Position numbers and translations under genes: made by a program. A model generated the notes under the pieces. That model was not told where the DNA came from. It saw nothing but the letters and a program-made list of their open reading frames with translations, and did no database searches. A DNA stretch of 64,000 bases from Flavobacterium sp. (GTDB lineage: Bacteria; Bacteroidota; Bacteroidia; Flavobacteriales; Flavobacteriaceae): NCBI RefSeq assembly GCF_040402895.1, contig NZ_JBBALR010000004.1, forward strand, positions 90,080 to 154,079, given 5' to 3'. Within the stretch, counting starts at the first letter, position 1; each line of letters opens with the position of its first letter. Of the stretch, positions 8,831 to 64,000 are shown in pieces.

Positions 8831-9034
8831 AGGTTAGGATTTTTTATAATCATTTTTTTTAGAATTTTCATATATACACAAAATTCAATCTTTCAACTAA
8901 ATATTTATAAATCATAATAATATGTAAAGTTATGCCCAAACGATATGACATTTGTACAACTATCTAAAATATCAATCAATGAAATGCCTTTTAAAAAGCG
9001 AAGATTTTAGTTTATTTTTCTTTATCATATTTTC

Positions 9035-9042
9035 CAAATATA
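9035..9042 (-). promoter_or_regulatory. candidate Bacteroidota -7 box (TATATTTG) for the thr operon
   Basis: The minus strand reads TATATTTG. This would give a leader of about 200 nt before thrA. Confidence 0.35.
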
Positions 9043-9234
9043 ATTCTTTATAAGTATGAAAAAAAGGTTTAAAGTATTTTTATGAAAATGATAATTTTTA
9101 ATTATTTTTATTTTAAATAATATCAATTTACAAGAAATCAAAGTGAATAACTATTGATTTAATAAAAAATAGTATTTAAAAATGTTGCATTTTAGAATTT
9201 GTTTGTAGAATTTTGACAGCTAAAACAAAATAAA

Positions 9235-10725
9235 ATGCATTACATAGATTCATCCGTACTTACTATAGAAAAAGTTAGAGAAATTATTTTTGAAGGAAAA
9301 AAAATAGCCCTTTCAGAAGAAGCTATCTCAAAAATAGAACGATGCAGAACGTATTTAGATGAAAAAATGGTTTCTAACGATACAGCTATTTACGGAATTA
9401 ACACTGGTTTTGGCTCGTTATATAATATAAAAATTTCGACAGAAAATTTAACCAAACTTCAAGAAAATTTAATGAAATCGCACGCTTGTGGTACCGGTGA
9501 CGAAGTACCGCACGAGATTGTAAAGATCATGTTGTTGTTAAAAATTCAATCTTTGAGTTACGGACATTCCGGTGTGCAATTAGAAACCGTTAATAGATTA
9601 ATTGATTTTTATAATCATGATATTTTACCAATTGTTTTTACACAAGGCTCATTAGGAGCAAGTGGCGATTTATCACCATTAGCTCATTTATGTTTACCCT
9701 TAATTAACGAAGGAGAAGTATATTACGATGGATTTCGTCAACCCGCACATAAAGTGTTAGAAAAATTGAACTTATCTCCCATTACATTAAAATCAAAAGA
9801 AGGCTTGGCATTATTAAACGGAACACAATTTATGAGCGCTTATGGCGTGTATAATTTAATTCAAGCCGATAAATTAGCGCATTTAGCAAATATTGTATCC
9901 GCAGTTTCTTTAGAAGGATTTGATGGAAGGAAAGAGCCTTTTAACGAATTAATTCATTTAGTACGACCACATAATGGGCAGATAGCAACCGCAGCGCATA
10001 TGTTAGAATTATTAGAAGATAGTGAAATTATTGCACAACCCAAAAAACATGTGCAAGATCCGTATTCTTTTAGATGTATTCCGCAAGTTCATGGTGCGTC
10101 AAAAGATGTAATTGACCATGTAAAAAAAGTATTTACTACCGAAATTAATTCGGTCACAGACAATCCAAATATTTTTGTAAGTGAAGATGAAATTATTTCT
10201 GGTGGAAATTTTCATGGACAACCCTTAGCAATGGCTTTAGATTATTTAGGTATTGCTTTAGCAGAATTGGGAAGTATTTCGGAAAGAAGAACCTACCAAT
10301 TAATTTCTGGATTAAGAGAATTACCTGCGTTTTTAGTAAGTAATCCGGGATTAAATTCTGGATTTATGATTCCGCAATATACCGCGGCAAGCATTGTTAG
10401 TCAGAACAAACAATTAGCAACGCCTGCAAGTATCGACAGTATTGTATCCAGCAATGGACAAGAAGATCATGTAAGTATGGGGGCAAATGCAGCTACAAAA
10501 ACGCTGAAAATTGTTGAAAATTTAGAACGCATTTTAGCCATTGAATTATTTAATGCTTCACAAGCTATCGAATTTAGAAGGCCTTTAAAATCAAGTGATT
10601 TCATTGAAATGTTTATAAAAACCTATCGTGAAGAAGTGCCTTTAGTTACAGAAGATAGAATTTTACATTATGACATTGAAAAATCAATTCATTTCTTGAA
10701 GAGTTTTCAAGTGGAAATAAACTAA
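9235..10725 (+). CDS. hutH: histidine ammonia-lyase
   Basis: 496 aa. MIO-forming motif GSLGASGDLSPLAHL and a typical HAL/PAL fold sequence. Confidence 0.92.
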   Translation: MHYIDSSVLTIEKVREIIFEGKKIALSEEAISKIERCRTYLDEKMVSNDTAIYGINTGFGSLYNIKISTENLTKLQENLMKSHACGTGDEVPHEIVKIMLLLKIQSLSYGHSGVQLETVNRLIDFYNHDILPIVFTQGSLGASGDLSPLAHLCLPLINEGEVYYDGFRQPAHKVLEKLNLSPITLKSKEGLALLNGTQFMSAYGVYNLIQADKLAHLANIVSAVSLEGFDGRKEPFNELIHLVRPHNGQIATAAHMLELLEDSEIIAQPKKHVQDPYSFRCIPQVHGASKDVIDHVKKVFTTEINSVTDNPNIFVSEDEIISGGNFHGQPLAMALDYLGIALAELGSISERRTYQLISGLRELPAFLVSNPGLNSGFMIPQYTAASIVSQNKQLATPASIDSIVSSNGQEDHVSMGANAATKTLKIVENLERILAIELFNASQAIEFRRPLKSSDFIEMFIKTYREEVPLVTEDRILHYDIEKSIHFLKSFQVEIN

Positions 10726-10901
10726 TTCATATTTCGTTTCGGTCTTTTGACTAATTCTCCTTGGCAATTTGGACAGATATCAGCCATTTCTACAGCGCAA
10801 GATTCACAAAATGTACATTCATAACTGCATATGCAAGCTTCTGATTGCATATACAACGAAATATTGCATTTCTCGCAAGAGGATTTGTATTCCAACGCCA
10901 T
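10722..10901 (-). CDS. DUF1272-like Cys-rich small protein (59 aa, not in ORF track)
   Basis: Manual translation: MALEYKSSCEKCNISLYMQSEACICSYECTFCESCAVEMADICPNCQGELVKRPKRNMN. It has 10 Cys in a CxxC...CxC..CxxCxxC...CxxC pattern typical of DUF1272. The ATG overlaps the upstream stop as TAATG. Confidence 0.7.
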   Translation of the reverse strand: MALEYKSSCEKCNISLYMQSEACICSYECTFCESCAVEMADICPNCQGELVKRPKRNMN

Positions 10902-11086
10902 TATTTATTTTTATTTTTTAGAAGATAAATTAGTACTGTAGCTCCAAAAATAACTTCTAACACTACACCAATATTAAAAATTAAAGTCGCACCTGGCCAT
11001 TCCATTATTTTAAAAAAAGCACCAAAGGCAACAACAAAACTGCAAGCTATAATAATTAATAACAGTTTTTTGAAATTATTTTGCAT
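10901..11086 (-). CDS. small membrane protein (2 predicted TM helices)
   Basis: 61 aa with two hydrophobic stretches (LLLIIIACSFVVAFGAFF, LIFNIGVVLEVIFGATVLIYLL). It sits 3 nt after the rimK-like stop and overlaps the next gene by 1 nt. Confidence 0.5.
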   Translation of the reverse strand: MQNNFKKLLLIIIACSFVVAFGAFFKIMEWPGATLIFNIGVVLEVIFGATVLIYLLKNKNK

Positions 11087-11089
11087 ATT

Positions 11090-12448
11090 TTACTTAAAGT
11101 TTTTTTCAATAGCTTTTATCATTTCTCCTGCAATATCTTTTTGAGTGGCACCTTCAATTCCTTCAAGTCCTGGAGATGAATTCACCTCTAATAATAGAGG
11201 TCCTTTTGTTGAACGAATAATATCTACTCCAGCCACTTTTAAATTCATTGCTTTAGCAGCTTTGATTGCAATTCTTTTTTCATCAGGAGTAACTTTTACA
11301 ATTGAGGCCGATCCGCCCAAATGAATATTTGCACGAAATTCTCCTGGAGCCGCCTCTCTTTGCATGGCTGCTACCACTTTTCCGTCTACTACAAACAAAC
11401 GTAAATCTTTTCCATTAGCCTCCTTAATGAATTCTTGTACTAAAATATTGGCATTCAAACTTTTAAATGCATTAATAACGGATTCGGCTGCTTTTTTAGT
11501 TTCTGCCAAAACGACACCTTTTCCTTGTGTTCCTTCTAATAATTTCACAATTAATGGTGAACCTCCTACCATTTTTATTAAATCATCTGTATCTAATGGA
11601 GAATTTGCAAAACCCGTTGTTGGGATATCTACTTCGTTGTTTAATAACAATTGTAATGAAAAAAGTTTGTCTCTTGATTGTGTTATGGCAGCTGCATTGT
11701 TTAAAACATATACTTTTAGCGCTTCAAATTGCCTGGTAAGTGCACAACCGTAATAGGTCATACTTGGTCGAATACGAGGAATTATGGCATCAAAATCTTT
11801 TAAAACCAAACCACCACGATAGTGAATTTCAGGATTAGATGCACTTAATTTCATATAACAATATTTGATGTTCAAAAAATGCATTTCGTGTCCACGCATT
11901 TCTCCGGCTTCAATAATTCTTCGGTTACTATACAACTCTGGATTACTCGCTAATAGACCTATTTTTAACCCTTTTTTCTCAGGTTCATTATAATAATATT
12001 CTTTTAAGCTTTCTGATGTGGGTTGACCTAATTCAAACTTTTTTTCAGGGTCAACTATCAATCTTCCCACCATTGCTTCTCTTCCTAGTAACATTCTGAA
12101 ACCCATTGAATCTCTATTAGTAAGTGTAACCTCAACTTGCCAGTTATGATTTCCCAAACCTACTTCTGTTCGAATTACATATCGCTTTTCTCTGGTTCCA
12201 TTAGAGCTTTTTATGATTCGTTGATCGACTAATTGTGCTTCACAATGAATAATAGATTTTGAATTATTTTGGATTGGATTAATATCAAATTTTAGCCAAT
12301 CTTCACCATTCTTATCAAATACTTTGATATCAATAGCATGTAATGCGGATGTTTTAGCTCCTGAATCTACTCGTGCTTTTATCGCGGGAATTCCTAATTG
12401 TGGGAACGAACACCATTCTTCACTTCCAATTAATGTTTTATCTTGCAT
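11090..12448 (-). CDS. rimK: RimK-family alpha-L-glutamate ligase fused to an N-terminal ATP-dependent zinc-protease-like (retropepsin-like) domain
   Basis: 452 aa. The N-terminal ~140 aa match the RimB/COG4067-like domain ([26 protein letters not shown]). The C-terminus is an ATP-grasp domain ([39 protein letters not shown]). Confidence 0.85.
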
Positions 12449-12501
12449 TTGAAAATAATTTAAAATCTAATGTACTATTATTTTTATTTTAATACGATAT
12501 A

Positions 12502-14376
12502 TTATTGTTGTTTTTTTGGAAATATATTGTCCTCCTTTTTTACGTCTGCCATTAAATCACTTGGATCAATAACTACAGATTTTATATTCCCTTTTTGTAA
12601 GTCAATTTCTATTGTATACGTTGGTATAGCCCAATCCCATCCTAATAAAACGTTTCTTTTTAAAGTAAACGGATTTGATTTTTCCCAACGCATTAAGGTA
12701 TTTGGAATATAAAAATACTCTTTAGTACCGTTTTCAAATTCTACAATTACATCTAAAGGCATTGGCATTCTACCTTTTCTTTCAAAAGTAATTTTATTAT
12801 TTTCCACCGATTTAATGGCGTAATCAATTGTATTTGTGGTTTGCGTCCATTCATTTAGATACCAATCTAAGTTGGCTCCCGAAATTTTTTCGGCGGTTCG
12901 CTTAATATCATTAGGCGTTGGATGTGTAAATTTATAATCTGAATAATATTTTTTTATGGTTTTGTCTAAATTTTCTTGTCCAATGATATACCCCAATTGT
13001 GCTAAAAATATTTCACCTTTACTATATGCACCAATACCATAGGATTGGTTAAAATCGTATCTATCCGCATGCGTCGTTAACGGTTGTTCTTTTCCTGAAT
13101 TGGCTAAAAAAACATAGTTATTGTAGGAATCTGCAAACGGGCTTTCTGGCTCTTTTGGTGGTAAAATTTGGTTCATAGCCAAATTAGAAATATAAGAAGT
13201 AAAACCTTCATCCATCCAACAATGTTTTGATTCATTAGTAGCTAAAATATGTTGAAACCAACTATGCGCAAATTCATGAGCGGTTACACCAACCAAACTG
13301 CCATAACTTCTATTTCCTGTAATCAAAGTACACATAGCATATTCCATACCCCCATCGCCACCTTGAATAACAGAATATTGTTTGTACGGATATTGTCCCA
13401 CATTTTTATTGAAATACGCTAATAATTCAGCAGTTTTAGGCTGCATTTTTTTCCAATTTTCTAGATTTTCTTTCTTATTTTTATAAAAGAAATGCAATTC
13501 GGTTTCATTTTCACCCATAATTTTATCATGAATGTATTCTGGATCGGCTCCCCAAGCAAAATCATGAACATTTGGAGCTATGAAATGCCAAGTTAAGGAT
13601 GATGTTTTTTTCGGATAAGTAACCACAACACCTGCATCTTCGTATCCTTTTCCAATTTCATTTTTATTTTGAAGATACCCAGTACTTCCAATGGTATAAT
13701 CTTTGTCTAAAGTAATTTTAACATCAAAATTTCCCCAAACACCATGAAATTCTCTTGCGATATACGTATCTGCATGCCATCCTTCAAAATCATATTCCGC
13801 CATTTTAGGATACCATTGCGTCATAGATAGCGCTACATTTTCTTCTGAATTTCTACCAGAACGACGAATTTGAAGCGGCACTTGCCCATCAAAATCTAAT
13901 GTAAAAGTGGAACTTGATTTTGGTAAAATTGCCTGTGGTAAAGTAACTTCTAATATAGTGCCTACAACTCTACTTTGAGCTGACACGCCGTTTTGTTTAC
14001 AATTTGAAACCAACAAATACCCGATTTCGTTTGGCTTTAAGGTACTAATTCTACTTTCTTTTATTTCTTTTTTATCTTTTGTAAATTTACGAACCATGCG
14101 TTTGTCTGGATCTGTAATGGATTGCAAACGCATATCCATAGCACTTCCTGGCTGAAACGCATTTGGATACAAATGAAAAAAAACTTTCTTTAACGTATCG
14201 GGAGAATTATTGGTATATATTAGTTCTTGCGTTCCTTTATATTGGTATTTTTTTACATCCATATTTACATTCATTTTATAGTCAACATGTTGTTGCCAAT
14301 ATCCTGAATTTGGATTGTTTTGTGCAAAAGAAATCCCTGTTAAAAGAAGTAAAAAGTATTTTAATGTATTTTTCAT
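12502..14376 (-). CDS. M1 family metallopeptidase (secreted)
   Basis: Signal peptide, then gluzincin motif HEFAHSWF followed by WMDEGFTSY. Confidence 0.85.
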   Translation of the reverse strand: MKNTLKYFLLLLTGISFAQNNPNSGYWQQHVDYKMNVNMDVKKYQYKGTQELIYTNNSPDTLKKVFFHLYPNAFQPGSAMDMRLQSITDPDKRMVRKFTKDKKEIKESRISTLKPNEIGYLLVSNCKQNGVSAQSRVVGTILEVTLPQAILPKSSSTFTLDFDGQVPLQIRRSGRNSEENVALSMTQWYPKMAEYDFEGWHADTYIAREFHGVWGNFDVKITLDKDYTIGSTGYLQNKNEIGKGYEDAGVVVTYPKKTSSLTWHFIAPNVHDFAWGADPEYIHDKIMGENETELHFFYKNKKENLENWKKMQPKTAELLAYFNKNVGQYPYKQYSVIQGGDGGMEYAMCTLITGNRSYGSLVGVTAHEFAHSWFQHILATNESKHCWMDEGFTSYISNLAMNQILPPKEPESPFADSYNNYVFLANSGKEQPLTTHADRYDFNQSYGIGAYSKGEIFLAQLGYIIGQENLDKTIKKYYSDYKFTHPTPNDIKRTAEKISGANLDWYLNEWTQTTNTIDYAIKSVENNKITFERKGRMPMPLDVIVEFENGTKEYFYIPNTLMRWEKSNPFTLKRNVLLGWDWAIPTYTIEIDLQKGNIKSVVIDPSDLMADVKKEDNIFPKKQQ

Positions 14377-14400
14377 TTGTAATAATTTGACTTAAATAAG

Positions 14401-14442
14401 ATAACCACAAAGATAAACGAATACGTATCACTTTGTGGTTAT
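14401..14442 (-). terminator. hairpin downstream of the S8 peptidase gene
   Basis: 12-bp stem ATAACCACAAAG / CTTTGTGGTTAT with a 18-nt loop. The T-run is weak on the minus strand. Confidence 0.45.
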
Positions 14443-14453
14443 TATTTTTTTGA

Positions 14454-16052
14454 TTATTTTTTTGTCATTTTTTCAGCTAAAAGTAAGGCGTTGTAGGCGT
14501 TTACTATTTTTCCTGATTTAGAAATTTCAGAAAAAATTGCTTTGTGTTTATCTTCACCAACAGAAATCATATTTTTTAACAATATACCACTTTCCATAAT
14601 AATTTGTTTCACCTCTATAGCTGTTAAACTTGGATAGTAAGATCGAATTAATGCCGCCACACCTGCCACATTTGGCGAAGCCATTGAAGTACCTTGTAAA
14701 TATTCATAGGTATTTAAAGGAGTCGTTGCATAAATTTTTTCACCTGGAGCAAAAATATCAACATTATTTTTTCCATAATTAGAAAAAGATGCCACCATTT
14801 TAGATCCGTAATCTGGAGTAAGAGCACCAATAATTAAAACGTTTTTAGCAAATTCAGGTGAATTATCGTACGTATCATTTGGATATTTATTCGTCACATC
14901 TAAATCATACGATTCGTTTCCTGCAGCAATTACTAAAAGTACATCTTTAGATTCTGCATATTTTATGGCATCAATTACTAATTCTTTATTTTGAGAGAAA
15001 TATTTTCCAAAAGAACCATTAATAACTTTTGCTCCATTGTCTACAGCATAACGAATTCCTAAAGCAATATCTTTATCATATTCATCACCATCAGGAACTG
15101 CTCGAATAGCCATGATTTCTACAACTGAACTAGCCACACCATCACCTCCTTTTTTGTTTCCTCTAACTTGCGCCACAATACCAGCCACATGCGTACCATG
15201 TTTTGCTTCTTTTGGCTCAGGACCTATCACATTATTATTGCCGTACTTTCTATCATTAATATCATCTGGATTGTCGTCAACTATTTTTCTGCCATCGTAT
15301 TCTACATTCAAATTATAATTTAATTGTCCATAAACATGGTCTTTATAATCAATAATTTCTTTATCAAACTCTGCTTTAGTCATTCCAGTTAAAAACTGAG
15401 AAAACATAGCTTTAGCTTGTAATAAACTTTGCTCTTTGGTTTCAATTTTTTTTACTTCTTCTAAGGTAAAATCATCTTTTTTTAGATACGATTTAATAGC
15501 CTTTTCAGCGTTTAAAATCATATCTAATTGCTGCTTATCTTGTTGCAAAACTTTAAGCTCTTCATCTAATCTAGCTTTTGCTTTGCTATATTCTGGAGTA
15601 CTTGGTCCTCTTTTTACAATACGAGTCATTTCTAATTGTTCATGAATAGCATCGCCTAAAAAATTCCAACCATGAATATCATCTATGTATCCATTATTAT
15701 CGTCATCAACGTTATTTCCAGAAATTTCTTTTGGATTGGTCCAAATAACAGATTTTAAATCTTCGTGATTAATATCTACACCAGAATCTACAATTCCAAC
15801 GATAACTTTTGTTCCTTTTTTACCTTTTAATACTTCTGCATAAGCTTTATCCACACTCATACCTGGCACTGTGTCTTTTACTAAGTCCAAATGACTCCAA
15901 CGTTGCAAGTCTTTTTCTTTTAACGGAGTAGTTTTTAATGGCATTCTATCAATATTCTCAATCGGAGTTGAAACCATTTTGGCTGAACCGCATCCAGATA
16001 AAACAAGTGCTAAAGCAAGTGATAGAAATAAAGGTTTAAATTGAATTTTCAT
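14454..16052 (-). CDS. S8 family serine peptidase (subtilisin-like lipoprotein)
   Basis: Lipobox LSGC. Catalytic D/H/S motifs VGIVDSGVD, HGTHVAGIV and GTSMASPNVAG. Confidence 0.87.
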   Translation of the reverse strand: MKIQFKPLFLSLALALVLSGCGSAKMVSTPIENIDRMPLKTTPLKEKDLQRWSHLDLVKDTVPGMSVDKAYAEVLKGKKGTKVIVGIVDSGVDINHEDLKSVIWTNPKEISGNNVDDDNNGYIDDIHGWNFLGDAIHEQLEMTRIVKRGPSTPEYSKAKARLDEELKVLQQDKQQLDMILNAEKAIKSYLKKDDFTLEEVKKIETKEQSLLQAKAMFSQFLTGMTKAEFDKEIIDYKDHVYGQLNYNLNVEYDGRKIVDDNPDDINDRKYGNNNVIGPEPKEAKHGTHVAGIVAQVRGNKKGGDGVASSVVEIMAIRAVPDGDEYDKDIALGIRYAVDNGAKVINGSFGKYFSQNKELVIDAIKYAESKDVLLVIAAGNESYDLDVTNKYPNDTYDNSPEFAKNVLIIGALTPDYGSKMVASFSNYGKNNVDIFAPGEKIYATTPLNTYEYLQGTSMASPNVAGVAALIRSYYPSLTAIEVKQIIMESGILLKNMISVGEDKHKAIFSEISKSGKIVNAYNALLLAEKMTKK

Positions 16053-16103
16053 TTTTTATAAATTTTATTTTAATTAATTTATTATTTGTATATATTATTA
16101 CAA

Positions 16104-17432
16104 TTATTCATATTTTATTTTAAATATAGAAACAGCATTTCCACTTTTAAGCACGCTATCTTTTCCTTGCGAAGTTACAATTAATTGTGTTCCATCATGC
16201 GAAATTGCCATTCCTACTGGAAATTTAGATACATCCTTACTTGCAATTACTTTCATTTCTTGGGCGTCTATTACTACTACTTTACATTCGTTGTTTACAC
16301 ACGCAAAAATATATTTTCCGTCTGTAGTTGTTTCAATTGTTCTTGCACCAAAGCCAACATTTACGGTTTGCCAATTTGAATAATTTACTAGGGTTTTTTC
16401 ATTTTCAAATGGAAGTTTTAATAGTTCGGAAAGTTTTGCTTTTTGTACCACACCGTGTTTGTTTGAACTTAAAATTAAGTCATCATTATTTATAATTATA
16501 TGTCTTAAATTTCCTTTGGAACCAGTAATTGTTCCTATATACTTAAAGGTTTTTGTTTCAATAACTGCAATTCCATTTCCTCCCATTTTTGCTATAAAAA
16601 TATACTTTCCATCTGGTGAAAAAACAGTCCCACGAAGACAATTTCCACAGTCATTATCTCTATTTACTTTTTGTCCGTTTGCATAATTCATTGTTAAACG
16701 TCCATCAACTTCAATGTGTGAAACATACTTAAAATCCATAACATTATTAGACGAAATATCAATTATACCAACTGTGTTGTCACCCCAATGAGTAACCGAA
16801 ATAAATTTATTATCTGGTGAGCAGGCAATCATTTTAGGCAATGGCCCAGATGGAATTACTCTACTAATTTCGTCGGTTTCTGTGTTAATTATAGCAACTG
16901 CTGATGGAGATTCGGCATTTTCATCAAAATCTCGTCTATAAAAAGTAACCCACAAAAACTTTCCTTCATGCGACAAACAACTTTCTACTGGTTTGCCAAA
17001 AAAATGATTAAAATTATCTTTTTTCTGTTTAAATTGATAATTAAACGCTGTATTTTCGTTGTTTTTAAATAAATGTTTGTTTTTATCTGAAAAATGGTGT
17101 TTAATAGTTTTTATTTTTTTAAAAGAGTTGGCATCGTACACAACTGTTGCATAGCCTTCTAATGAATTTATATAAAATTTAGTGCCATCTTTTGAATAAA
17201 TTGCCGATTTAGGCGAATAAATATCTACATCGTATACATCTTTTTCCTCCTTTATTAAAGAATCAATTGAATGAATTCTTCGTTCTAATACCAATTCGGA
17301 AAATGTTCCGCTGGTTTTACAAATCTCTTTATTTTCTTTTTCTAAAATTGAAACTTTTGGTTTGTTTTCCAAAGGTTTGTTTTGGCATGCTGCTACACAT
17401 GCAAAGGCTAAAATTCCTAAAAAATAATTCAT
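16104..17432 (-). CDS. beta-propeller repeat lipoprotein (YncE-like)
   Basis: Start set at MNYFLGILAFACVAAC (lipobox), which overlaps the upstream stop as TAATG. The sequence is repetitive with Asp/Gly/Lys-rich turns (SPDGKYIF, TTDGKYIF, SHDGTQLIV), typical of propeller blades. Confidence 0.6.
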   Translation of the reverse strand: MNYFLGILAFACVAACQNKPLENKPKVSILEKENKEICKTSGTFSELVLERRIHSIDSLIKEEKDVYDVDIYSPKSAIYSKDGTKFYINSLEGYATVVYDANSFKKIKTIKHHFSDKNKHLFKNNENTAFNYQFKQKKDNFNHFFGKPVESCLSHEGKFLWVTFYRRDFDENAESPSAVAIINTETDEISRVIPSGPLPKMIACSPDNKFISVTHWGDNTVGIIDISSNNVMDFKYVSHIEVDGRLTMNYANGQKVNRDNDCGNCLRGTVFSPDGKYIFIAKMGGNGIAVIETKTFKYIGTITGSKGNLRHIIINNDDLILSSNKHGVVQKAKLSELLKLPFENEKTLVNYSNWQTVNVGFGARTIETTTDGKYIFACVNNECKVVVIDAQEMKVIASKDVSKFPVGMAISHDGTQLIVTSQGKDSVLKSGNAVSIFKIKYE

Positions 17433-40723: not shown

Positions 40724-41626
40724 TTATTTTCCTCTTGGATGAAAGGTGTTCATTACATCTGCTAAAAATTTTCTATCCAAGTGCATATAGACTTCTGTAG
40801 TCGTAATAGATTCGTGACCCAACATCAATTGAATCGAACGTAAATCGGCACCATTTTCTAATAAATGTGTCGCAAAAGAATGCCGAAATGTATGTGGTGA
40901 GATGGTTTTTTTTAAATCGATTTTTAAGGCTAAATCCTTAATAATTGTAAAAACCATAGCGCGAGTAAGTTGTTTTCCCCTACGATTGAGAAACAACGTA
41001 TCTTCGTGTCCTTTTTGAATAGGTATATGGGTACGAATGAAGTTTTTATAGTTCAAAATTATTTTTTGCGTGGACAAACCAATTGGAACAAAGCGTTGTT
41101 TGTTTCCTTTTCCTGTAATTTTCAGAAAACCTTCTTCAAAAAATAAATCGGATATTTTTAAGGTGACCAATTCAGAAACACGTAAACCACAACTATAAAG
41201 GGTTTCCAACATCGCTTTATTTCGTTCTCCTTCGGTTGAAGTTAAGTTTATGGCTTGAATTAATAAATCTATTTCTTCTGTAGAAAGGGTATCGGGTAAT
41301 TTTCTTCCTGTTTTTGGGACTTCAATTAATTCAAGCGGCGTGTCTTTGCGATACTCTTCAAAAATTAAATAATTAAAAAAACTCTTTAAACCTGAAATTA
41401 TCCTGGATTGACTTCGCGCATTCACTTGAGTAGAAATGGTGTAAATAAATTGTTGCACCTGTTCGTCAGTAATTTTTATTGGAGAAACCTCTATGTTATT
41501 TTCTGTTAGAAAACCTACTAATTTTTCAATATCAAAACTATAATTCTGAATGGTATTAAGAGACAATCCACGTTCCAATCGTAAATAATTTTGATATTCT
41601 TTTATGTAAGTATTCCAATTTGGCAT
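40724..41626 (-). CDS. xerD: site-specific tyrosine recombinase XerD
   Basis: 300 aa. Catalytic region HTFRHSFATHLL ... LGHESITTTEVYMH. Confidence 0.88.
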   Translation of the reverse strand: MPNWNTYIKEYQNYLRLERGLSLNTIQNYSFDIEKLVGFLTENNIEVSPIKITDEQVQQFIYTISTQVNARSQSRIISGLKSFFNYLIFEEYRKDTPLELIEVPKTGRKLPDTLSTEEIDLLIQAINLTSTEGERNKAMLETLYSCGLRVSELVTLKISDLFFEEGFLKITGKGNKQRFVPIGLSTQKIILNYKNFIRTHIPIQKGHEDTLFLNRRGKQLTRAMVFTIIKDLALKIDLKKTISPHTFRHSFATHLLENGADLRSIQLMLGHESITTTEVYMHLDRKFLADVMNTFHPRGK

Positions 41627-58388: not shown

Positions 58389-58410
58389 TTTTTTCCAAAA
58401 CATACACTTT

Positions 58411-58437
58411 AAAAAGCGGCTAGTAGTCGCTTTTTTT
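58411..58437 (+). terminator. Rho-independent terminator after the OmpA-family gene
   Basis: AAAAAGCGG-CTAGTAG-TCGCTTTTTTT. Confidence 0.65.
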
Positions 58438-58582
58438 ATTTCAAAATATTTGAATAAACCCAATACACTTTGCCTTTTACTCTTTACCCAAAACCTTTTA
58501 CCCTACTCCTCTTTTATTATAAAAGTATAACCAACAAGTTTGGAAATTATTTATTACAATTGGTTTTAATAATAAGCGAAAC

Positions 58583-58628
58583 AAAACTTCGTATAACTAC
58601 CCAAATATGGGTGTATATACGAAACTCT
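58583..58628. repeat. inverted repeat with lox-like arms (AAAACTTCGTATA ... TATACGAAACTCT), 20-nt spacer
   Basis: 8-bp perfect inverted core TTCGTATA/TATACGAA. The spacer contains an inner ACCCA/TGGGT palindrome. Confidence 0.5.
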
Positions 58629-58699
58629 TTAACGCATATATACTAGTTGGCAGTAATTTTTCACCATATAAAGAACGTAATTTGTTATTTCAATTAGAT

Positions 58700-58822
58700 A
58701 CTTCTTCAATTGTTTTGCAGAAATCATTCTACATAAATAATTTCACCTCTTTATTTAATTAGTTTTAAATTAGAAATTATCAATATCATCTATAATTAAG
58801 TGCATTATTCAATGTTAGAAGT
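58700..58822 (+). repeat. degenerate attC-like element E0
   Basis: Terminal inverted repeat ACTTCTtcaATT (58700-58711) / AATgttAGAAGT (58811-58822). GTTTTGCAG (58712-58720) is the complement of the CTGCAAAAC core of E1/E2. The 3' end contains GTTAGAA. Confidence 0.3.
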
Positions 58823-58859
58823 GTTAAAAAAATAAGATTTTTTAGAAAATTTTAAAATA

Positions 58860-58892
58860 ATGTTCATTTTCGATAGGTCATGTTCATTTTCG
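58860..58892 (+). repeat. tandem direct repeat ATGTTCATTTTCG x2, 20-bp phase
   Basis: Identical 13-mers at 58860-58872 and 58880-58892, about 200 nt upstream of the 59089 ORF. Confidence 0.6.
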
Positions 58893-59088
58893 TTAATTAA
58901 TTGTAAAAGAAAGCATATAATTTTAAAAAATAATGCAAAGTAATGCTCAGTGATTTTAAAATTCAAACGGCTAATTTTGAGCATATACACCAAAGTGGGC
59001 ATAGCTTTGCTCAACTAAACTCAAAAAACGGAGTATATAAATGAGTTAATGCCAATGCTTAGACGACATACAATAAATAATTACAACT

Positions 59089-60084
59089 ATGGAAGATAAA
59101 AATGCAATTAAACAGGAAATAATAACCCTTACGACTCAACGAGACAATTTAAGTAAAGAAATTGAGCATTATAAAAACGACATCAATCAGATAACTGAGG
59201 GGAAGCCATCATTGAGAGAACTAATGACCTCGCGTCTATCAATAATGGAGTCGACAATTAAAGTAATGTCAGACAATGTTGACAGAATAAATACTTTTCA
59301 TAATGAATTGCTTCATCCAAAAGAGTGACAAACCAAATCGCAATTAGAACTAGCTAATGAGGCATTTTCAAAGATTACGGCTGACAAGGAAAAATCAGAA
59401 ACAGAATTAAAAGCAATTGAAACCTTCAAGGTCGAACTACTGGGTGATAATGAGAAAAATATTATTGGGCAAAAACAAAGGTTTGACACTATTGAGTCCG
59501 AAATCAAAAACAATAAAAAGACATGGGAGGACAACGCAGATACATTATTTAAAAAAATCGAAGGACTAATTCCAGGTGCAACTGCAACAGGTTTGGCAAA
59601 AGCCTACCAAGACCAAAGAGAATCATATAATAAACCGTATTGGTTGTGGGCTTATGTTTTCATACTTACAATGTGCGGTGCAATTTGGTTTGCAATTACA
59701 AATTTAAAAGATGCTACATCTGTTGAAGATGCGTTTATGAAAGTAATTTCAAGACTTCCTTTTTTTATTCCAGCATTTTGGCTTGCAATATTTGCAAGTA
59801 AACAACAAAGTCAAAATAAAAGACTTCAGCAAGAGTACGCCTATAAAGAAGCTTTAACAAAATCCTACGAAGCAGACAAGCGAGAAATTGAAAAACTACC
59901 AGAGTCACCTGAAAGACATCAACTTTCCGCTAAACTTCTTGAAACTATGATTGACGCAGCTAAATTCAATCCAAGTGAGACATTGGAAAGTAAGACACAT
60001 AATGACGAACCACCAAGTGTTTTCGAATTGTTTAAAATTCGAATGCTTAAGAAATTAACTGGGACTGACAAATCAAACCCATAG
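59089..60084 (+). pseudogene. coiled-coil / two-TM-helix protein gene interrupted by one in-frame TGA (codon 80)
   Basis: ORFs 59089-59328 and 59593-60084 are in the same frame. Manual translation of 59329-59592 shows no stop and no ATG. The TGA at 59326-59328 is the only interruption of a 331-codon frame. TM segments: WLWAYVFILTMCGAIWFAI and LPFFIPAFWLAIFAS. Confidence 0.6.
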
Positions 60085-60092
60085 AAGAACTA

Positions 60093-60228
60093 GGCACTAA
60101 CACGGGTTTTGCGTCAGGCGGGGTGACGTGCAAACTTGGAGCTTTGTGCTTCGTATCAAGTTCAGTGCTGGCAGACAGTTTTGTGCTCCGAAACCCGCCC
60201 GAACGCCAAGCTGCAAAACGTTGTAGGC
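60093..60228 (+). repeat. attC-like GC-rich element E1
   Basis: Starts 9 nt after the stop codon with GCACTAAC. The 5' arm GCGTCAGGCGGG pairs with the 3' arm CCCGCCCGAACGC. Ends with CGCCAAGCTGCAAAACGTT-GTAGGC. The 19-mer is identical to that in E2. Confidence 0.45.
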
Positions 60229-60278
60229 TATATTTAACCAATGAACCATAAAAATTAGTAACCAAGAACAATGTAATT

Positions 60279-61676
60279 ATGAAAAAAAAATTATTTAAAA
60301 TTTTCAGTTCTTTTGCTTTAGTAGCATCTATTATCTTTTTTTCTTGTGAAAAAAATGAAGTTAATATTGACGAACATTCGCATGTAGATAAAAACAAAAT
60401 TTCATTCAAAGAATTTTTAAACAAAACTCAAATCAAAAAATTTAAATTTGAAATAAGCACAAATTCCTCAACAAACCAATCATTAGTCAATAGACAATCT
60501 AGCGATTTTATTAGTTTTGTTGTAGATACTACTTTAGTAAAACAACGTATTCAAATAAGTGGTAATTATACTTTTACATTACCAGTTATTCCTGTTCCTT
60601 ATCAAAACACCGAAAGTCTTTTCTATAATATTGTTTTTTACAAAGCAAATAATGCTTGGCAGTGGTCAGTTTTAGAATATCAAAAAGAAGGTAATAATGA
60701 ATTTAATGTAACAGAAATTGTTAATGACTTTAATCATAATGGTCTCGTAAACATGAGATTGCAAGGTGTTTGGGGTACAATAACAACATTCAATTGTGTT
60801 GGATGTAAAGGAGCTTGTGATTTATGCCCACTATGTGTTTCTACAACAACAACTTATGATTTAGCTACACTTGATGACCCTACTAGTAAATTTGAAATTA
60901 TTGAAGGTACAGGAAACAACAATAATGGAGCTACAAGTGTAAATGTAGGAATGGCTCTTGCAGATAATTTTGCAAATACTCAATTAACACCTGAGCAAAA
61001 ACTTATTTACGACTTAAACCCAAGTATAAGAGAATATCTTTCTAACAATAAAATTGTCGTTTCTAATCCAAATTACAATCCTCTGTTAGGCGGTGATCCA
61101 ACAATTGCTGTAATTGACCAGGATGCTGAACAGTTTGTGAAAGAGTTGATTGATTCAGAAATCAATGGAAATTTATTAAGTTTTTTTCCAACGTTTAAGT
61201 ACCCTGCGGGTAGTAATTACGCGACACAATATCCAAAATTAACCGAATATTTAAAAAATAAAATACCTGAACTTAAAAACAATCAATTTATTATTAATAA
61301 ATTAGTTCAATATTCAGAATTGAGTAGTCAACAAGTTATCAACGATTTAAAATGGGGTCAAGGTCCAACTATACAGATTGCTCAATTAGATAGTAGAGGA
61401 GTTAATTGTTATGGTATTTTTAGTTCGGCTACTCCAAATGTATTAACTATTGACATTGATTTTGTAAACCTTTTAGAAAACTCTACTCCAGGTCCAGAAG
61501 GAGATAGTTTAGCCTTTTTACTAGGTGTTACAATATTACATGAATATGTTCATTTAGGGGATTTTGTTGATGGTATAGATCAACCTGGTGAAGAAGGCCT
61601 GCTTTTTGAACAAGCTACATATGGTGAAACAATTTGGCTTAATAATGCTGGGGATGTTTTAATTAAATGGCAATAA
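60279..61676 (+). CDS. lipoprotein with Cys cluster and C-terminal zincin-like HExxH module
   Basis: Lipobox FFSC. CVGCKGACDLCPLC cluster. C-terminal LLGVTILHEYVHLGD (HExxH) about 50 aa from the end. Confidence 0.65.
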   Translation: MKKKLFKIFSSFALVASIIFFSCEKNEVNIDEHSHVDKNKISFKEFLNKTQIKKFKFEISTNSSTNQSLVNRQSSDFISFVVDTTLVKQRIQISGNYTFTLPVIPVPYQNTESLFYNIVFYKANNAWQWSVLEYQKEGNNEFNVTEIVNDFNHNGLVNMRLQGVWGTITTFNCVGCKGACDLCPLCVSTTTTYDLATLDDPTSKFEIIEGTGNNNNGATSVNVGMALADNFANTQLTPEQKLIYDLNPSIREYLSNNKIVVSNPNYNPLLGGDPTIAVIDQDAEQFVKELIDSEINGNLLSFFPTFKYPAGSNYATQYPKLTEYLKNKIPELKNNQFIINKLVQYSELSSQQVINDLKWGQGPTIQIAQLDSRGVNCYGIFSSATPNVLTIDIDFVNLLENSTPGPEGDSLAFLLGVTILHEYVHLGDFVDGIDQPGEEGLLFEQATYGETIWLNNAGDVLIKWQ

Positions 61677-61689
61677 AAAAAATAGAATT

Positions 61690-62073
61690 ATGAAAAAAAT
61701 ATTATTATTATCAATTCTTTTATGTTTTAGTTTTTACAACAAAGATTGTAGCTATTGCGAATCTTTGGAAAAAGTTTTAAAAAATAAAATTTTATTAGAT
61801 TTTCTACATATTGAAGAAAATAATAGAAGTGTCTTATATTTAGAAGAAAATAAATATTGTAACTTAAATAAAGTTATTTTAAAAAATTTATCAATAAAGA
61901 CTTTGTCAAAAAAAGAAATATCCAATAAAAAGAATGTTATTTTTATAGAAAATATTGAAATAACAGAAAAAGAAAAATACAAAATAATACTTTTTTATCC
62001 AATAGAAGGTGTATATTTTGAAGCATTCTTTAAAAATAAAAGTCTATATAAAATAGAAACTATTGAAAAGTAA
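61690..62073 (+). CDS. small secreted/lipo-protein, possible cognate partner of the upstream HExxH protein
   Basis: 127 aa with signal peptide MKKILLLSILLCFSF, starting 13 nt after the upstream stop. Lys/Glu/Asn-rich. Confidence 0.5.
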   Translation: MKKILLLSILLCFSFYNKDCSYCESLEKVLKNKILLDFLHIEENNRSVLYLEENKYCNLNKVILKNLSIKTLSKKEISNKKNVIFIENIEITEKEKYKIILFYPIEGVYFEAFFKNKSLYKIETIEK

Positions 62074-62097
62074 AACATTTCTTTCTTTAATAATACA

Positions 62098-62234
62098 ACC
62101 TACAACCGCAGTTTGTAGCAATAGCGGCTTTCGGGCAAAACTGAAAGTCGCTTTTTACTTGCAAAGTCAGTTTTAATTCGAAAATTTAGGCTTCCTTAAT
62201 CCGCCACATCGCCAAGCTGCAAAACGTTAAAAAA
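62098..62234 (+). repeat. attC-like GC-rich element E2
   Basis: Begins with CCTACAAC (62099-62106), the exact reverse complement of GTTGTAGG at 60220-60227. Ends with CCGCC-N5-CGCCAAGCTGCAAAACGTT (62210-62228). Confidence 0.45.
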
Positions 62235-62256
62235 ACTGTTTATGGCTACTCGCCAT
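62229..62256 (-). terminator. terminator of the minus-strand glycosyltransferase operon
   Basis: Hairpin ATGGC-TACTC-GCCAT (62242-62256). The minus strand then reads AAACAGTTTTTTT. Confidence 0.45.
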
Positions 62257-62275
62257 CTTTATATTTAAAAAAACA

Positions 62276-63037
62276 CTATTTATGCATAAACCAATTGGTT
62301 CCGTCATCAAAATAAGCTTTGAATTCTGAGTTTACCGGATCACCATGTAAAATTCGATTATTATAATTTTTCCGCATCATATAGTTAAAAGCGCCCATAT
62401 CGCCTGTAAAGGAAGTGGTATTATCAAAATTATAATTTTTATGAATTTGCCAAATTGATTCTAATAATGGTTTAATGGTTTGAATATGGCCACCAATAAT
62501 CCCACAATTTAATAAACTATTTGACTTGTTTGCCGCTTCAACAGCAACAAAATCTTTAATTCGACTTCTTAAATGAGATCCATGCTCGGACATCCATTCA
62601 TTATCCCATTTTGTGGGTTCATCACCACAAAATACAAAATCTGAATTAGCTATAAATAAAGGTTGTATAAATGGATTTTTTAACACTAAAACATCCGAAA
62701 CATCCGTTACAAAAAGCGATTCAATTGCATCCGAATATTTATGGATGAATTGGCTGTACACGCTATATCTAAATACATTTGGATTAAATTGAATATCGTG
62801 TGTTATTGTAACAAATAATAAATGTTCTGATTGATGTTTTAAAATAGTTTCTTCGGAAAAATTATTATGAAAAATGATTGCTTGAAGATTTAATTTTGAA
62901 ATGGAATTAGCCCATTTTTCAATAATTGAAAAATCGTCATCTAAAAGGATTTGGCTTCTATTTACGTCATAAACCCCTGAAATATGACAGCCTAATATTA
63001 GATTTTTTGCTAATGAAAAGTTTGAAGGTATTTCCAT
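62276..63037 (-). CDS. hypothetical protein, possibly a GT-A-fold nucleotide-sugar transferase
   Basis: 253 aa. DxD-like FVTDVSDV and NCGIIGGH. TAATG coupling to the upstream GT2 gene. Confidence 0.5.
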   Translation of the reverse strand: MEIPSNFSLAKNLILGCHISGVYDVNRSQILLDDDFSIIEKWANSISKLNLQAIIFHNNFSEETILKHQSEHLLFVTITHDIQFNPNVFRYSVYSQFIHKYSDAIESLFVTDVSDVLVLKNPFIQPLFIANSDFVFCGDEPTKWDNEWMSEHGSHLRSRIKDFVAVEAANKSNSLLNCGIIGGHIQTIKPLLESIWQIHKNYNFDNTTSFTGDMGAFNYMMRKNYNNRILHGDPVNSEFKAYFDDGTNWFMHK

Positions 63038-63681
63038 TAACTGAAATTATTCATTTTAACTTTTGCACTAATACTATTTGGATTATTTCTGTAATAAACA
63101 TAGGTTCTTAAATCTAATTTATCCACAAAATATAACTTTTCAGCACATTCATAAAAATGAGCATCTGCACCATACATATCTAAAAAATTTAAGCTTGTAA
63201 AAACTTCTTTTTTTCCAAAAAGTGTTGCAAACAAAATACAATCATCCACATGAATTACTTCATTTTTATTGAAACGATCCGGAACGTAATAATCTGATTC
63301 ATTATTTACAATAGTTTCTGTTGTAGAAGCAATCAAATCTAATGAATTTATCTCCGACAAGCATAATTCTAAATGATTTGGTTTGTACTCATCATCTGCA
63401 TCAATTACAGTTATGTATTCACTATTTGTTAGTAAAATGCCTCTATTTATAGATTCTGATTGACTGCAATTTTTATGTCGCAAGTAAGTCATTTTACTTT
63501 CATGTTTAATAACATAATCTAAAATTAAATTTTGAGAATCATTCGTACTTCCGTCATCAATAATTAATAATTCAAAATCTTGAAAAGTTTGGTTTAAAAC
63601 CGAATCTATTGCTCTTTTTATAATGTCAAATGGCGTGTTATACACAGCCATTATTACAGCCACTTTATTTTTGGTTTTCAT
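63037..63681 (-). CDS. family 2 glycosyltransferase
   Basis: Start set at MKTKNKVAVIMAVYNTP (GT2 N-terminus). FELLIIDDGS and VIDADDEY motifs. The ORF-track N-terminal extension is AT-rich and implausible. Confidence 0.8.
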   Translation of the reverse strand: MKTKNKVAVIMAVYNTPFDIIKRAIDSVLNQTFQDFELLIIDDGSTNDSQNLILDYVIKHESKMTYLRHKNCSQSESINRGILLTNSEYITVIDADDEYKPNHLELCLSEINSLDLIASTTETIVNNESDYYVPDRFNKNEVIHVDDCILFATLFGKKEVFTSLNFLDMYGADAHFYECAEKLYFVDKLDLRTYVYYRNNPNSISAKVKMNNFS

Positions 63682-64000
63682 AATTAAATTTATAAGTACA
63701 AAAATAGCATTAATAAATTTGTTATTTATTAAATAATTTTTAAATCTTAATAATCGAAAAAAAAATAATTGACATTTAACCAAATTTATACAAATAACTT
63801 ATTGTGTTTAATTTGGTATATTTATGGATAGCACAAAAGTTGGTATCATATAATCACTCAAGGATACTAAATTGAAATTTAGATCTTTATTTAAAGTTTT
63901 TTTGTACTTTTGATTACATTGCTTCATGGAAAGTATTGGATTACCAATTCCTAACTCCTTTAAAAGGTCGAAACACAAATTGTAATTGCAGGAAAAATAA

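Follow-up and report, generated by a model that had tools for sequence, protein, structure and literature searches.

A short chromosomal array of two putative mobile gene cassettes in a Flavobacterium sp., a probable member of an integron-like cassette system of the Bacteroidota

The 64,000-nucleotide stretch of Flavobacterium sp. DNA analysed here (NCBI RefSeq assembly GCF_040402895.1, contig NZ_JBBALR010000004.1, positions 90,080 to 154,079 of the forward strand; called the window below and numbered from its first letter) contains between positions 59045 and 62228 what is very probably a short array in the chromosome, made up of two mobile gene cassettes, each of which ends in a GC-rich attC-like site (E1 and E2, respectively). 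We consider it highly likely that an integron-like cassette system of the Bacteroidota, served by an Xer-like tyrosine recombinase, explains this array, which within that system is a small member that lacks a recombinase beside it and has partly decayed. The evidence comes from the sites themselves, from related genomes whose gene content changes exactly at the site junctions, and from recombinase genes linked to such sites elsewhere.

E1 and E2 were pointed out in an earlier note made by reading this DNA, which described two GC-rich attC-like elements that follow the stop codons of + strand genes and share an identical 19-mer, and our measurements of GC content, position and profile matches agree with that description. 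The 19-mer, CGCCAAGCTGCAAAACGTT, is present exactly twice in the window, both times on the + strand (60204–60222 and 62210–62228), and nowhere else even when three mismatches are allowed; a shuffled window is expected to contain none, again even with three mismatches. The GC content is 0.44–0.49 for E1 and 0.39 for E2, compared with 0.14–0.35 for the neighbouring DNA, and the elements begin 9 nucleotides (nt) and 25 nt, respectively, after the stop codons TAG 60082–60084 and TAA 62071–62073. The complementarity that the note found at the cassette boundaries is also exact, as GTTGTAGG (60220–60227) is the reverse complement of CCTACAAC (62099–62106). A search of the whole window with nhmmer (--max, E <= 100) found no weaker copies of the site beyond these two. 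The note correctly stated that the window has no IntI-type gene; its only tyrosine recombinase is xerD (40724–41626, - strand), about 18 kb from the array, and two sites 2 kb apart without an adjoining integrase have the layout of a CALIN (attC sites clustered without an integron integrase). Of the two possibilities that the note offered, a CALIN-type cluster or a new family of sites, the second is closer, and to call the array a CALIN of a classical integron is wrong because the recombinases linked to such sites in other genomes lack the IntI-specific insertion (below).

The locus set used for comparison was obtained by scanning one genome per species for exact copies of the 19-mer, and the family-wide counts given here rest on the loci listed (individual loci carry L numbers). 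Exact copies are present in at least 120 genome loci, and the matches listed are almost all from Bacteroidota (Flavobacterium, Chryseobacterium, Kaistella, Pedobacter, Chitinophagaceae, Saprospiraceae, Cytophagales and a few Bacteroidales); they cover the orders Flavobacteriales, Chitinophagales, Cytophagales and Sphingobacteriales as well as the Saprospiraceae. Three or four listed matches lie outside the phylum, which by our own estimate is about the chance level for a 19-mer, and the matches listed are often at contig ends. An nhmmer profile built from 72 copies of the site found 242 sites in the loci listed, mostly in same-strand arrays with a spacing of 0.3–3 kb and up to six sites per 6 kb. 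The site is an imperfect palindrome of ~135 nt in the array (~160 nt when it is rebuilt as in the circle), and from its flanks inward it follows the common plan NNNNN-YAAC-A-GCAGTTTGGCAAAATGGCGG ... centre ... CCGCCACTTCGCCAAGCTGC-AAAAC-GTT-RNNNN. The AAC and GTT triplets are invariant in 99 of 99 aligned sites, E1 and E2 among them, and the arms are strongly conserved across the phylum, while the centres sort into subfamilies. The centres of E1 and E2 (46% identical to one another), which had been described as unrelated, are thus not arbitrary: E1 belongs by its 5' arm and centre to the L009/L054 type (identities of 92% and 88%), and the centre of E2 is 78% identical to that of a site in L089 (subfamily L089, L064, L010 and L024). 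For the 61 verified cassettes the median length is 1118 nt, and their open reading frames (ORFs) are co-oriented with the site in 83 cases and opposite in 5. The cargo of these 83 ORFs, which come from other loci, is broad; it includes defence functions (methylases, restriction components, Pbe/Dnd, AIPR, GmrSD and AriA/PtuA-like ATPases), resistance-type proteins (ANT(6), a Lnu-like nucleotidyltransferase and a class D beta-lactamase-like protein), transporters and regulators.

The bases at the boundaries between neighbouring sites carry a signature of cassettes. When the 5 nt that precede AAC in each site were set against the 5 nt that come after GTT in the same-strand site before it, 64 of 92 neighbour pairs were perfectly complementary (mean 4.30 of 5), and the E1–E2 pair of the window is complementary at 5 of 5 positions; in the controls, a site and its own downstream flank were perfectly complementary in 7 of 172 cases (mean 2.17), and random pairs of sites in 2.5%. 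The failures concentrate at long gaps between sites, in which an intermediate site has probably been missed. Among true neighbours the complementarity extends as far as position +12, interrupted at +8 by a conserved A·C mismatch (0% complementary), and the bases 3' of each GTT therefore belong to the next unit and were once part of its palindrome. Such a boundary rule is the integron signature that excision of a circle and crossover at the central triplet would be expected to leave; homologous recombination between repeats may preserve it but cannot create it. The complementarity between E1 and E2 that the earlier note saw is an instance of a family-wide rule, and the 19-mer marks co-oriented, arrayed sites that obey it and not the scattered repeat of REP (repetitive extragenic palindromic) type that the note had named as a pitfall.

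In a non-redundant set of 99 sites the two arms pair into a stem of ~20 bp. RNAalifold predicts 18 pairs, 17 of which show compensatory changes, and a specified 28-pair structure (the stem, the AAC/GTT triplet and five outer self-pairs) has a covariation score of 0.39, compared with 0.126 for shuffled alignments (0 of 500 reach 0.39) and at most 0.08 when the pairing partners are slid along the alignment. Conserved unpaired features are a 5-nt AAAAC bulge that lies beside the GTT and faces a single A, and A·C oppositions at alignment columns 21/125 and 24/121; this bulge and these mismatches differ from the unpaired spacer and extrahelical bases of a canonical attC site. A pairing of GTTTTGC with GCAAAAC that had been proposed for E1 is not conserved, as the family leaves AAAAC as a bulge. 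Circular-form sites (n = 58) were rebuilt by joining each site to the 12 nt that come after the site before it, and their mean folding energies are −31.4 kcal/mol for the bottom strand and −26.9 kcal/mol for the top strand, versus −12.8 kcal/mol for mononucleotide shuffles; in array form the same sites give −22.6 and −21.1 kcal/mol. The bottom strand is the more stable one in 57 of the 58 rebuilt sites (Wilcoxon p = 4e-11), because the conserved top-strand A·C oppositions become G·T pairs on the bottom strand. For E2 joined to the start of cassette 2 the values are −25.8 (bottom) and −20.1 kcal/mol (top), and its bottom strand folds into 15 contiguous closing pairs, a 4-nt bulge and then the stem. 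Of the single-strand fold that the earlier note proposed to look for, the family shows a covarying stem and, in the rebuilt sites, a preference for the bottom strand.

Comparison with relatives shows that gene content changes exactly at GTT, as expected if cassettes were exchanged at G/TT (the slash marks the crossover position here and below), which is what the earlier note had suggested and proposed to check in related genomes. L121 and L123, conspecific contigs that encode an OmpA-family protein identical to that of the window and have 94–97% DNA identity to it, match the window to 59047 and diverge exactly after ...AAATGAGTT, where they read GTT/CTATGC... and the window reads GTT/AATGCC...; both contigs stop before the site of their first cassette. 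In L127–L129 the flanks are 92% identical to the window up to 59048, and an extra 386-nt first cassette is followed by the window's 59045–60222 block, by different content and then by the flank from 62264–62267. The 59045–60222 block corresponds to L127 11928–13105 as a single block of 97.5% identity and is the second cassette there; its ORF is intact in L127 and differs from that of the window at 5 of 996 nt (99.5% identity) compared with 92% identity in the flanks, and this difference in identity and the different position in the array fit recent mobility of the cassette. L133 has the same attI-like site followed by two other cassettes, the first of which has a start, GTTATGAGA, that matches its own site, TCTCATAAC; the starts of the new first cassettes match their own sites at 5 of 6 nt in L127 and 6 of 6 nt in L133. 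Both L127 and L133 are without the cassette 2 block, and blastn homology to them resumes at window position 62264–62267. Four different first cassettes (those of the window, L121/L123, L127 and L133) therefore abut one GTT. In L130, which has a related flank, homology ends at window position 58656 and an Imm27 cassette follows. L124, a metagenome contig of 2095 nt, covers only mid-E1 to mid-E2, and all four metagenome contigs (4/4) that carry the window's own OmpA-family protein end at most about 0.8 kb after its gene.

These comparisons also place the beginning of the array, which the earlier note had begun at E1, at an attI-like junction at 59045–59047. Two direct copies of GAG(C/T)ATATA(C/A) lie there (58979–58988 and 59031–59040), and the junction at 59031–59047 reads GGAGTATATAAATGA/GTT. 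The start of cassette 1, GTTAATGCC, is one mismatch from the complement of GGCACTAAC in E1 (AATGCC after the GTT against GGCAC in E1), and the start of this cassette in L127, GTTAGTGCC, is its perfect complement. In the window GTTAGTGCC finds no more than a match with one mismatch, at 59045, which alone is within chance expectation, and we accept it as the cassette start because the comparison with relatives validated it. The resemblance of the E1 junction to the attI1 core, noted earlier, is not needed, with the real attI-like junction 1.2 kb upstream at 59045.

Recombinase genes are linked to such arrays in other genomes. With the XerD protein of the window as probe, 12 tyrosine-recombinase ORFs were found in the loci listed, 10 of them upstream of an array and co-oriented with its cassettes. 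These linked recombinases match the integron-integrase model TIGR02249 only in two blocks (profile positions about 2–180 and 237–315) with 175–210 bits (cut-off 265) and the XerD model with 142–201 bits, and their best NCBIfam model is NF040815, "tyrosine recombinase/integron integrase" (172–234 bits, cut-off 220). Alignment to the best PDB matches, the XerA structures 4a8e and 5hxy, is continuous, and alignment to VchIntIA (2a3v) splits into two blocks, between which the linked recombinases have 26 aa and VchIntIA has 69; they therefore lack the IntI-specific insertion. A C-terminal SPLxxL tail is common to them and VchIntIA. They have 100–290 extra N-terminal residues (an N-terminal domain of about 85–290 aa), a region without a Pfam match, and an AlphaFold model has a confident alpha/beta domain of ~85 aa at the N-terminus; a fold search with the whole recombinase model, in which the N-terminal domain was not searchable separately, returned only recombinase cores (XerA and IntI4). 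The family is very large and generically named. Relatives of its catalytic domain (about 51% identity, annotated as tyrosine recombinase or TnpF) are frequent among the plasmids of Acinetobacter, Klebsiella and Aeromonas.

A ...TATA(W)AA..A/GTT junction, preceded by 2–3 copies of a 9–12-nt motif, lies 80–110 nt after the recombinase stop codon in L117, L105, L115, L054, L055, L080, L108 and L125, and in the first five of these the junction GTTNNNNN is the complement of the start of the first site. Among these loci, L054 comes from Flavobacterium sasangense DSM 21067, L115 from Pedobacter aquatilis CECT 7114 and L117 from Belliella calami DSM 107340, cultured strains with both recombinase and array. 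Judged from these sequences, the recombinase-proximal junction would behave as an attI site. The same recombinase, with co-oriented genes after it, is present on Chryseobacterium plasmids, and one of them (L125, Chryseobacterium sp. SNU WT5 plasmid NZ_CP041688, locus 8974–17054) has the attI-like junction and at least one site of the family. On this plasmid the first unit past the attI-like site is a ~190-nt site without an ORF, and the array region is broken by an IS110 element and an opposite-strand group II intron, the latter recalling the attC-targeting group IIC introns of integrons. In L017 (3224–4009) a shorter tyrosine recombinase lies beside a site, itself on the opposite strand, and is followed by an ORF that reads as putatively IS91-like; this looks like a recombinase context different from that of the array-linked enzymes.

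We propose that a tyrosine recombinase would cut and join at the invariant AAC/GTT in the middle of the stem, with the exact cleavage position predicted at G/TT, and that its substrate would be the folded bottom strand. Two adjacent sites would release a circular cassette with the predicted junction ...AAAACG/TTGTAGGC..., and the circle would insert at the attI-like TATATAAATGA/GTT (59045), so that the bases after GTT would be part of the cassette that follows and would pair with the beginning of its own site. The enzyme acting on the window array would be encoded elsewhere and would resemble the co-oriented Xer-like recombinase found upstream of the attI-like site in other loci, with its extra N-terminal domain and without the IntI insertion. 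Cassette expression would come from upstream of the array. The promoter consensus in Bacteroidetes is TAnnTTTG, and TAATTTTG, a candidate promoter only, presumably fits this −7 motif.

Several observations weigh against this proposal or limit it. Ascertainment by the exact 19-mer skews the sample to one site subfamily. Neither the window (tblastn of 58.4–59.0 kb and of the whole 64 kb) contains a family recombinase or a remnant of one, nor do the close relatives (L127–L134) have a recombinase adjoining the array, and exchange in the window must therefore rely on a recombinase gene at another place in the genome or have taken place in the past. Folded in array form, E1 and E2 are no more stable than shuffled sequences (z −0.1 to −1.0), although this form is misleading because the functional site spans the cassette junction. 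E1 gains nothing on its bottom strand even when rebuilt (−24.2 versus −24.9 kcal/mol). Its 3' arm (60204–60213) is the consensus GCCAAGCTGC and not the GCAAAGCCCG that pairs with such a 5' arm in sister sites, and the mismatched arms therefore leave three stem mismatches and no strand preference; E1 is a degenerate or chimeric mix of two site subfamilies and is probably a poor recombination substrate. Between 60137 and 60186 the centre of E1 is a ~50-nt module different from that at L127 13018–13070, with both site arms identical. A site centre is apparently replaceable as a block, and another recombination process must therefore also act on the sites. Finally, the gene of cassette 1 is broken by a nonsense TGA codon at 59326–59328 (GGA in L127), which by its sequence makes it an inactivated pseudogene, and this together with the chimeric E1 means that the array may be decaying. 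Decay and other recombination processes thus also act on the window array, as seen in the chimeric E1, the swapped centre and the pseudogene.

There is an alternative, that the array is a relic of past site-specific recombination whose present differences among strains arise by homologous recombination or transformation with no active recombinase. The missing adjoining recombinase in the window and in L127–L134, the chimeric E1 with its block-swapped centre between identical arms, the pseudogene, and the 40–50 nt of identity that the arms offer for homologous exchange all speak for it. We nonetheless regard it as unlikely. Four different first cassettes abut the same GTT, with the cassette starts in L127 and L133 matching their own sites; the cassette 1 ORF has 99.5% identity against 92% for the flanks at another array position; and the boundary rule is not something that homologous recombination can create. 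Several first cassettes at one junction and a near-identical cassette at two array positions, with no recombinase in cis, speak more for a recombinase that acts in trans than for a pure relic, and the array may still be active at present.

It is less probable still that the array is a CALIN of a classical integron, made of ordinary attC sites and served by a true IntI whose gene lies in another part of the genome. Integrons do share the AAC/GTT core, the boundary rule, the preference for the bottom strand and the promoterless, co-oriented ORFs, the TIGR02249 scores of the linked recombinases (175–210 bits) are about level with those against the XerD model, and the SPLxxL tail is that of VchIntIA; however, every array-adjoining recombinase lacks the IntI insertion and falls below the 265-bit TIGR02249 cut-off, the sites carry an asymmetric bulge of 1 nt versus 5 nt instead of a central spacer, and the outer pairing goes 12 nt past the crossover and not 4. 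IntegronFinder surveys of the Bacteroidetes, moreover, report only In0 elements and one complete integron, in Salinibacter ruber (PMC9024848), and this near-absence suggests that sites of the present kind are missed by them. We give the least credence, close to none, to the reading of the sites as REP-like repeats, miniature inverted-repeat transposable elements (MITEs), terminators or structured RNA elements that take no part in recombination. Their appearance as widespread GC-rich palindromic units right after stop codons, often at contig ends, would suit it, but it leaves unexplained the boundary rule between neighbours, the switch of gene content exactly at GTT, the strict orientation with the ORFs and the linkage to a recombinase and an attI-like site. 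REP and MITE copies are dispersed and bear no fixed relation to neighbours or gene content, and the copies here are arrayed and co-oriented with complementary neighbours; Rfam (E <= 10, 56–64 kb) gave no match at E1 or E2, and there is no T-run 3' of the stem. It was on the boundary rule and on the polymorphism at the junctions that we rejected these readings.

Among described systems the closest relative of the integron-like system proposed here is rAID-1, the arrays of recombinase-associated acquired interbacterial defence in gut Bacteroidales (Ross et al. 2019, 10.1101/471110), whose repeats were called "reminiscent of integrons" by their authors (10.1101/471110) and which in 2025 were defined by a recombinase, a gene array and "conserved intergenic sequence motifs" with no mechanism given (10.1101/2025.05.03.651265); the two papers are without a crossover point, site structure or strand preference (10.1101/471110, 10.1101/2025.05.03.651265). 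In both systems short, low-GC genes of one orientation, parted by conserved repeats, have a tyrosine recombinase on their 5' side, and toxin/immunity cargo is present in the family described here as Tox-MPTase3 (window) and Imm27 (L130). A B. ovatus rAID-type integrase (L126), taken as proxy for BF9343_RS08045, shares 45% identity, across the core-binding and catalytic domains, with the Flavobacteriia-type recombinase P0001, an enzyme linked to the present site family elsewhere. The L126 spacers of ~60 nt have the plan NNNNN-TAAC-A-stem ... stem-AAACC-ATT-ANNNN, and they obey the same boundary rule (6 nt after xTT versus 6 nt before the next AAC/T) in 9 of 11 cases, versus 2.5% for mismatched partners. 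The systems differ in that rAID-1 sites are ~60 nt long with an ATT crossover, whereas those described here are ~135 nt long with GTT and a branched or variable centre, and in that rAID-1 is defined only in Bacteroidales and by immunity genes, whereas this family extends across many orders with broad cargo. Set beside the definition of rAID-1, the window contains no 5' XerD-like recombinase at least 44% identical to BF9343_RS08045; it does have at least two co-directional downstream genes at GC <= 41% (three ORFs, 0.14–0.38) and conserved intergenic repeats in the same layout but longer (E1 and E2), and its cargo is a toxin, a small ORF and a pseudogene and not mostly orphan immunity genes. 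The window sites are thus a long-site, GTT-type variant of the same kind.

Like classical integrons, the arrays described here consist of cassettes of one or two promoterless co-oriented ORFs that end in an AAC...GTT imperfect palindrome (PMC4889954, PMC9024848), the crossover is at GTT with the distal half of R' in the next cassette, the bottom strand of the rebuilt sites folds better, the insertion site lies beside the recombinase gene, and integrase-less arrays occur. They differ in that the IntI-specific domain, which defines IntI and is considered necessary for its activity (Messier and Roy 2001, as cited in PMC9668308), is found neither in the window nor in the linked recombinases elsewhere, in that the linked recombinase has an extra N-terminal domain and a gene co-oriented with the cassettes, and in that the sites are longer than classical attC sites, with 12-nt outer pairing, an AAAAC bulge and arms conserved phylum-wide. 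Archaeal XerA and integron integrases resemble the linked recombinases through the NF040815 model and the XerA structures, but XerA acts at double-stranded dif sites, archaeal IntI keeps the IntI-specific domain (PMC9668308), and both are without the N-terminal domain and without these sites. Polyimmunity loci are likewise tandem, co-oriented accessory genes that vary by strain and sometimes lie beside Xer-type recombinases, which were proposed to help gene accumulation (Zhang, Aravind et al. 2012, PMC3482391); they differ in being defined by immunity content with no recombination sites described and in being stated to be uninterrupted by toxin genes (PMC3482391), whereas cassette 2 of the window has a toxin. 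When the literature was searched for integrons or for sites like attC in Bacteroidota or Flavobacterium, the present sites were not described there, and only rAID-1 and polyimmunity loci came to light. The pdif modules of Acinetobacter plasmids are small gene modules bounded by Xer-type recombinase sites, which are 28-bp double-stranded XerC/XerD sites in alternating orientation. We know of no long folded palindrome, boundary-complementarity rule, or dedicated array with an insertion site in pdif modules.

The features of the window array are listed in Table 1.

Table 1. Features of the cassette array in the Flavobacterium sp. window
Feature	Position	Strand	Details
Candidate Bacteroidetes-type −7 promoter box TAATTTTG	58972–58979	+	Reads into array; kept in L121 and L123
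attI-like insertion site	58979–59047	+	TATATAAATGA/GTT; crossover triplet GTT 59045–59047
Cassette 1	59046–60220	+	From TT of attI-like GTT to G of E1 GTT
Cassette 1 gene, 331 codons	59089–60084	+	Coiled-coil protein with transmembrane segments
E1, attC-like site of cassette 1	60087–60222	+	nhmmer E = 4.9e-17
E1 parts	Outer arm from 60087; AAC 60099–60101; GTT 60220–60222	+	
Cassette 2	60221–62226	+	From TT of E1 GTT to G of E2 GTT
465-aa predicted lipoprotein gene	60279–61676	+	C-terminal Tox-MPTase3 metallopeptidase toxin domain
127-aa ORF	61690–62073	+	Signal-peptide-like N-terminus; directly 3' of toxin gene
E2, attC-like site of cassette 2	62092–62228	+	nhmmer E = 1.3e-20
E2 parts	Outer arm from 62092; AAC 62104–62106; GTT 62226–62228	+	
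Tail after last GTT	62229–62263	+	35 nt; hairpin ATGGC-TACTC-GCCAT

The array holds three co-oriented ORFs, and the GC content of the cassette bodies is 0.14–0.38. The protein of cassette 1 matches no Pfam family significantly and has a 31% identical homologue in a cassette of L004. The toxin of cassette 2 is probably secreted; its domain matches Pfam PF15639 (Tox-MPTase3) with E = 1.8e-17 over residues 316–449, and the N-terminus of this protein, MKKKLFKIFSSFALVASIIFFSC, reads directly as a lipoprotein signal. The 127-aa ORF has no significant Pfam family either; from its position it may encode the immunity protein of the toxin, and it and the toxin are both called as genes in L124.

Upstream of the array, between the OmpA-family gene and the attI-like junction, lies a 650-nt AT-rich stretch (58389–59044) with no credible ORF, which contains the direct repeat ATGTTCATTTTCG at 58861–58873 and 58880–58892, is ~92% conserved in relatives and is partly deleted in L130. 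The 35-nt tail that follows the last GTT is missing in close relatives, and a similar sequence follows the terminal site in an unrelated Flavobacterium metagenome-assembled genome (L014 153–225); this tail may mark the end of an array or be what is left of a truncated cassette start. Downstream, on the - strand (62276–63684), are genes for a 253-aa protein and a family-2 glycosyltransferase, for which exact look-ups of the two proteins gave no record. Both are deleted in L127 and L133 save for a 41–51-aa remnant of the glycosyltransferase, and the right flank of the array is therefore also variable.

On balance we lean, by a small degree, toward a wider reading in which the Bacteroidota possess a second kind of integron with an Xer-like recombinase that captures and reshuffles cassettes, has its own N-terminal domain and lacks the IntI-specific one, folded sites of 60–160 nt and an xTT/AAC cut, of which rAID-1 is one branch, and whose cargo is of the defence, toxin/immunity and resistance type, sometimes on plasmids; such a system would be missed by integrase and site models alike. 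The rAID-1 branch is known, and the sites, the crossover point, the strand bias and the phylum-wide reach are undescribed in the literature searched. The window locus itself is a modest orphan member of the family. In the integron field the IntI-specific domain is regarded as a requirement for attC recombination and the Bacteroidetes as essentially without integrons, and the present system fills a gap there, as the sequences of most Bacteroidota orders give evidence of cassette exchange at the central triplet of a palindrome with a linked recombinase that lacks the IntI domain. rAID-1, whose mechanism of gene acquisition was left open, gains a concrete model that names its sites, where crossover occurs, which strand is likely to be active and where insertion takes place. 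Bacteroidota from the environment and from fish may have here a hidden route by which genes of defence and of resistance type (ANT(6), Lnu-like and class D beta-lactamase-like) are exchanged, one that current integron finders would not report.

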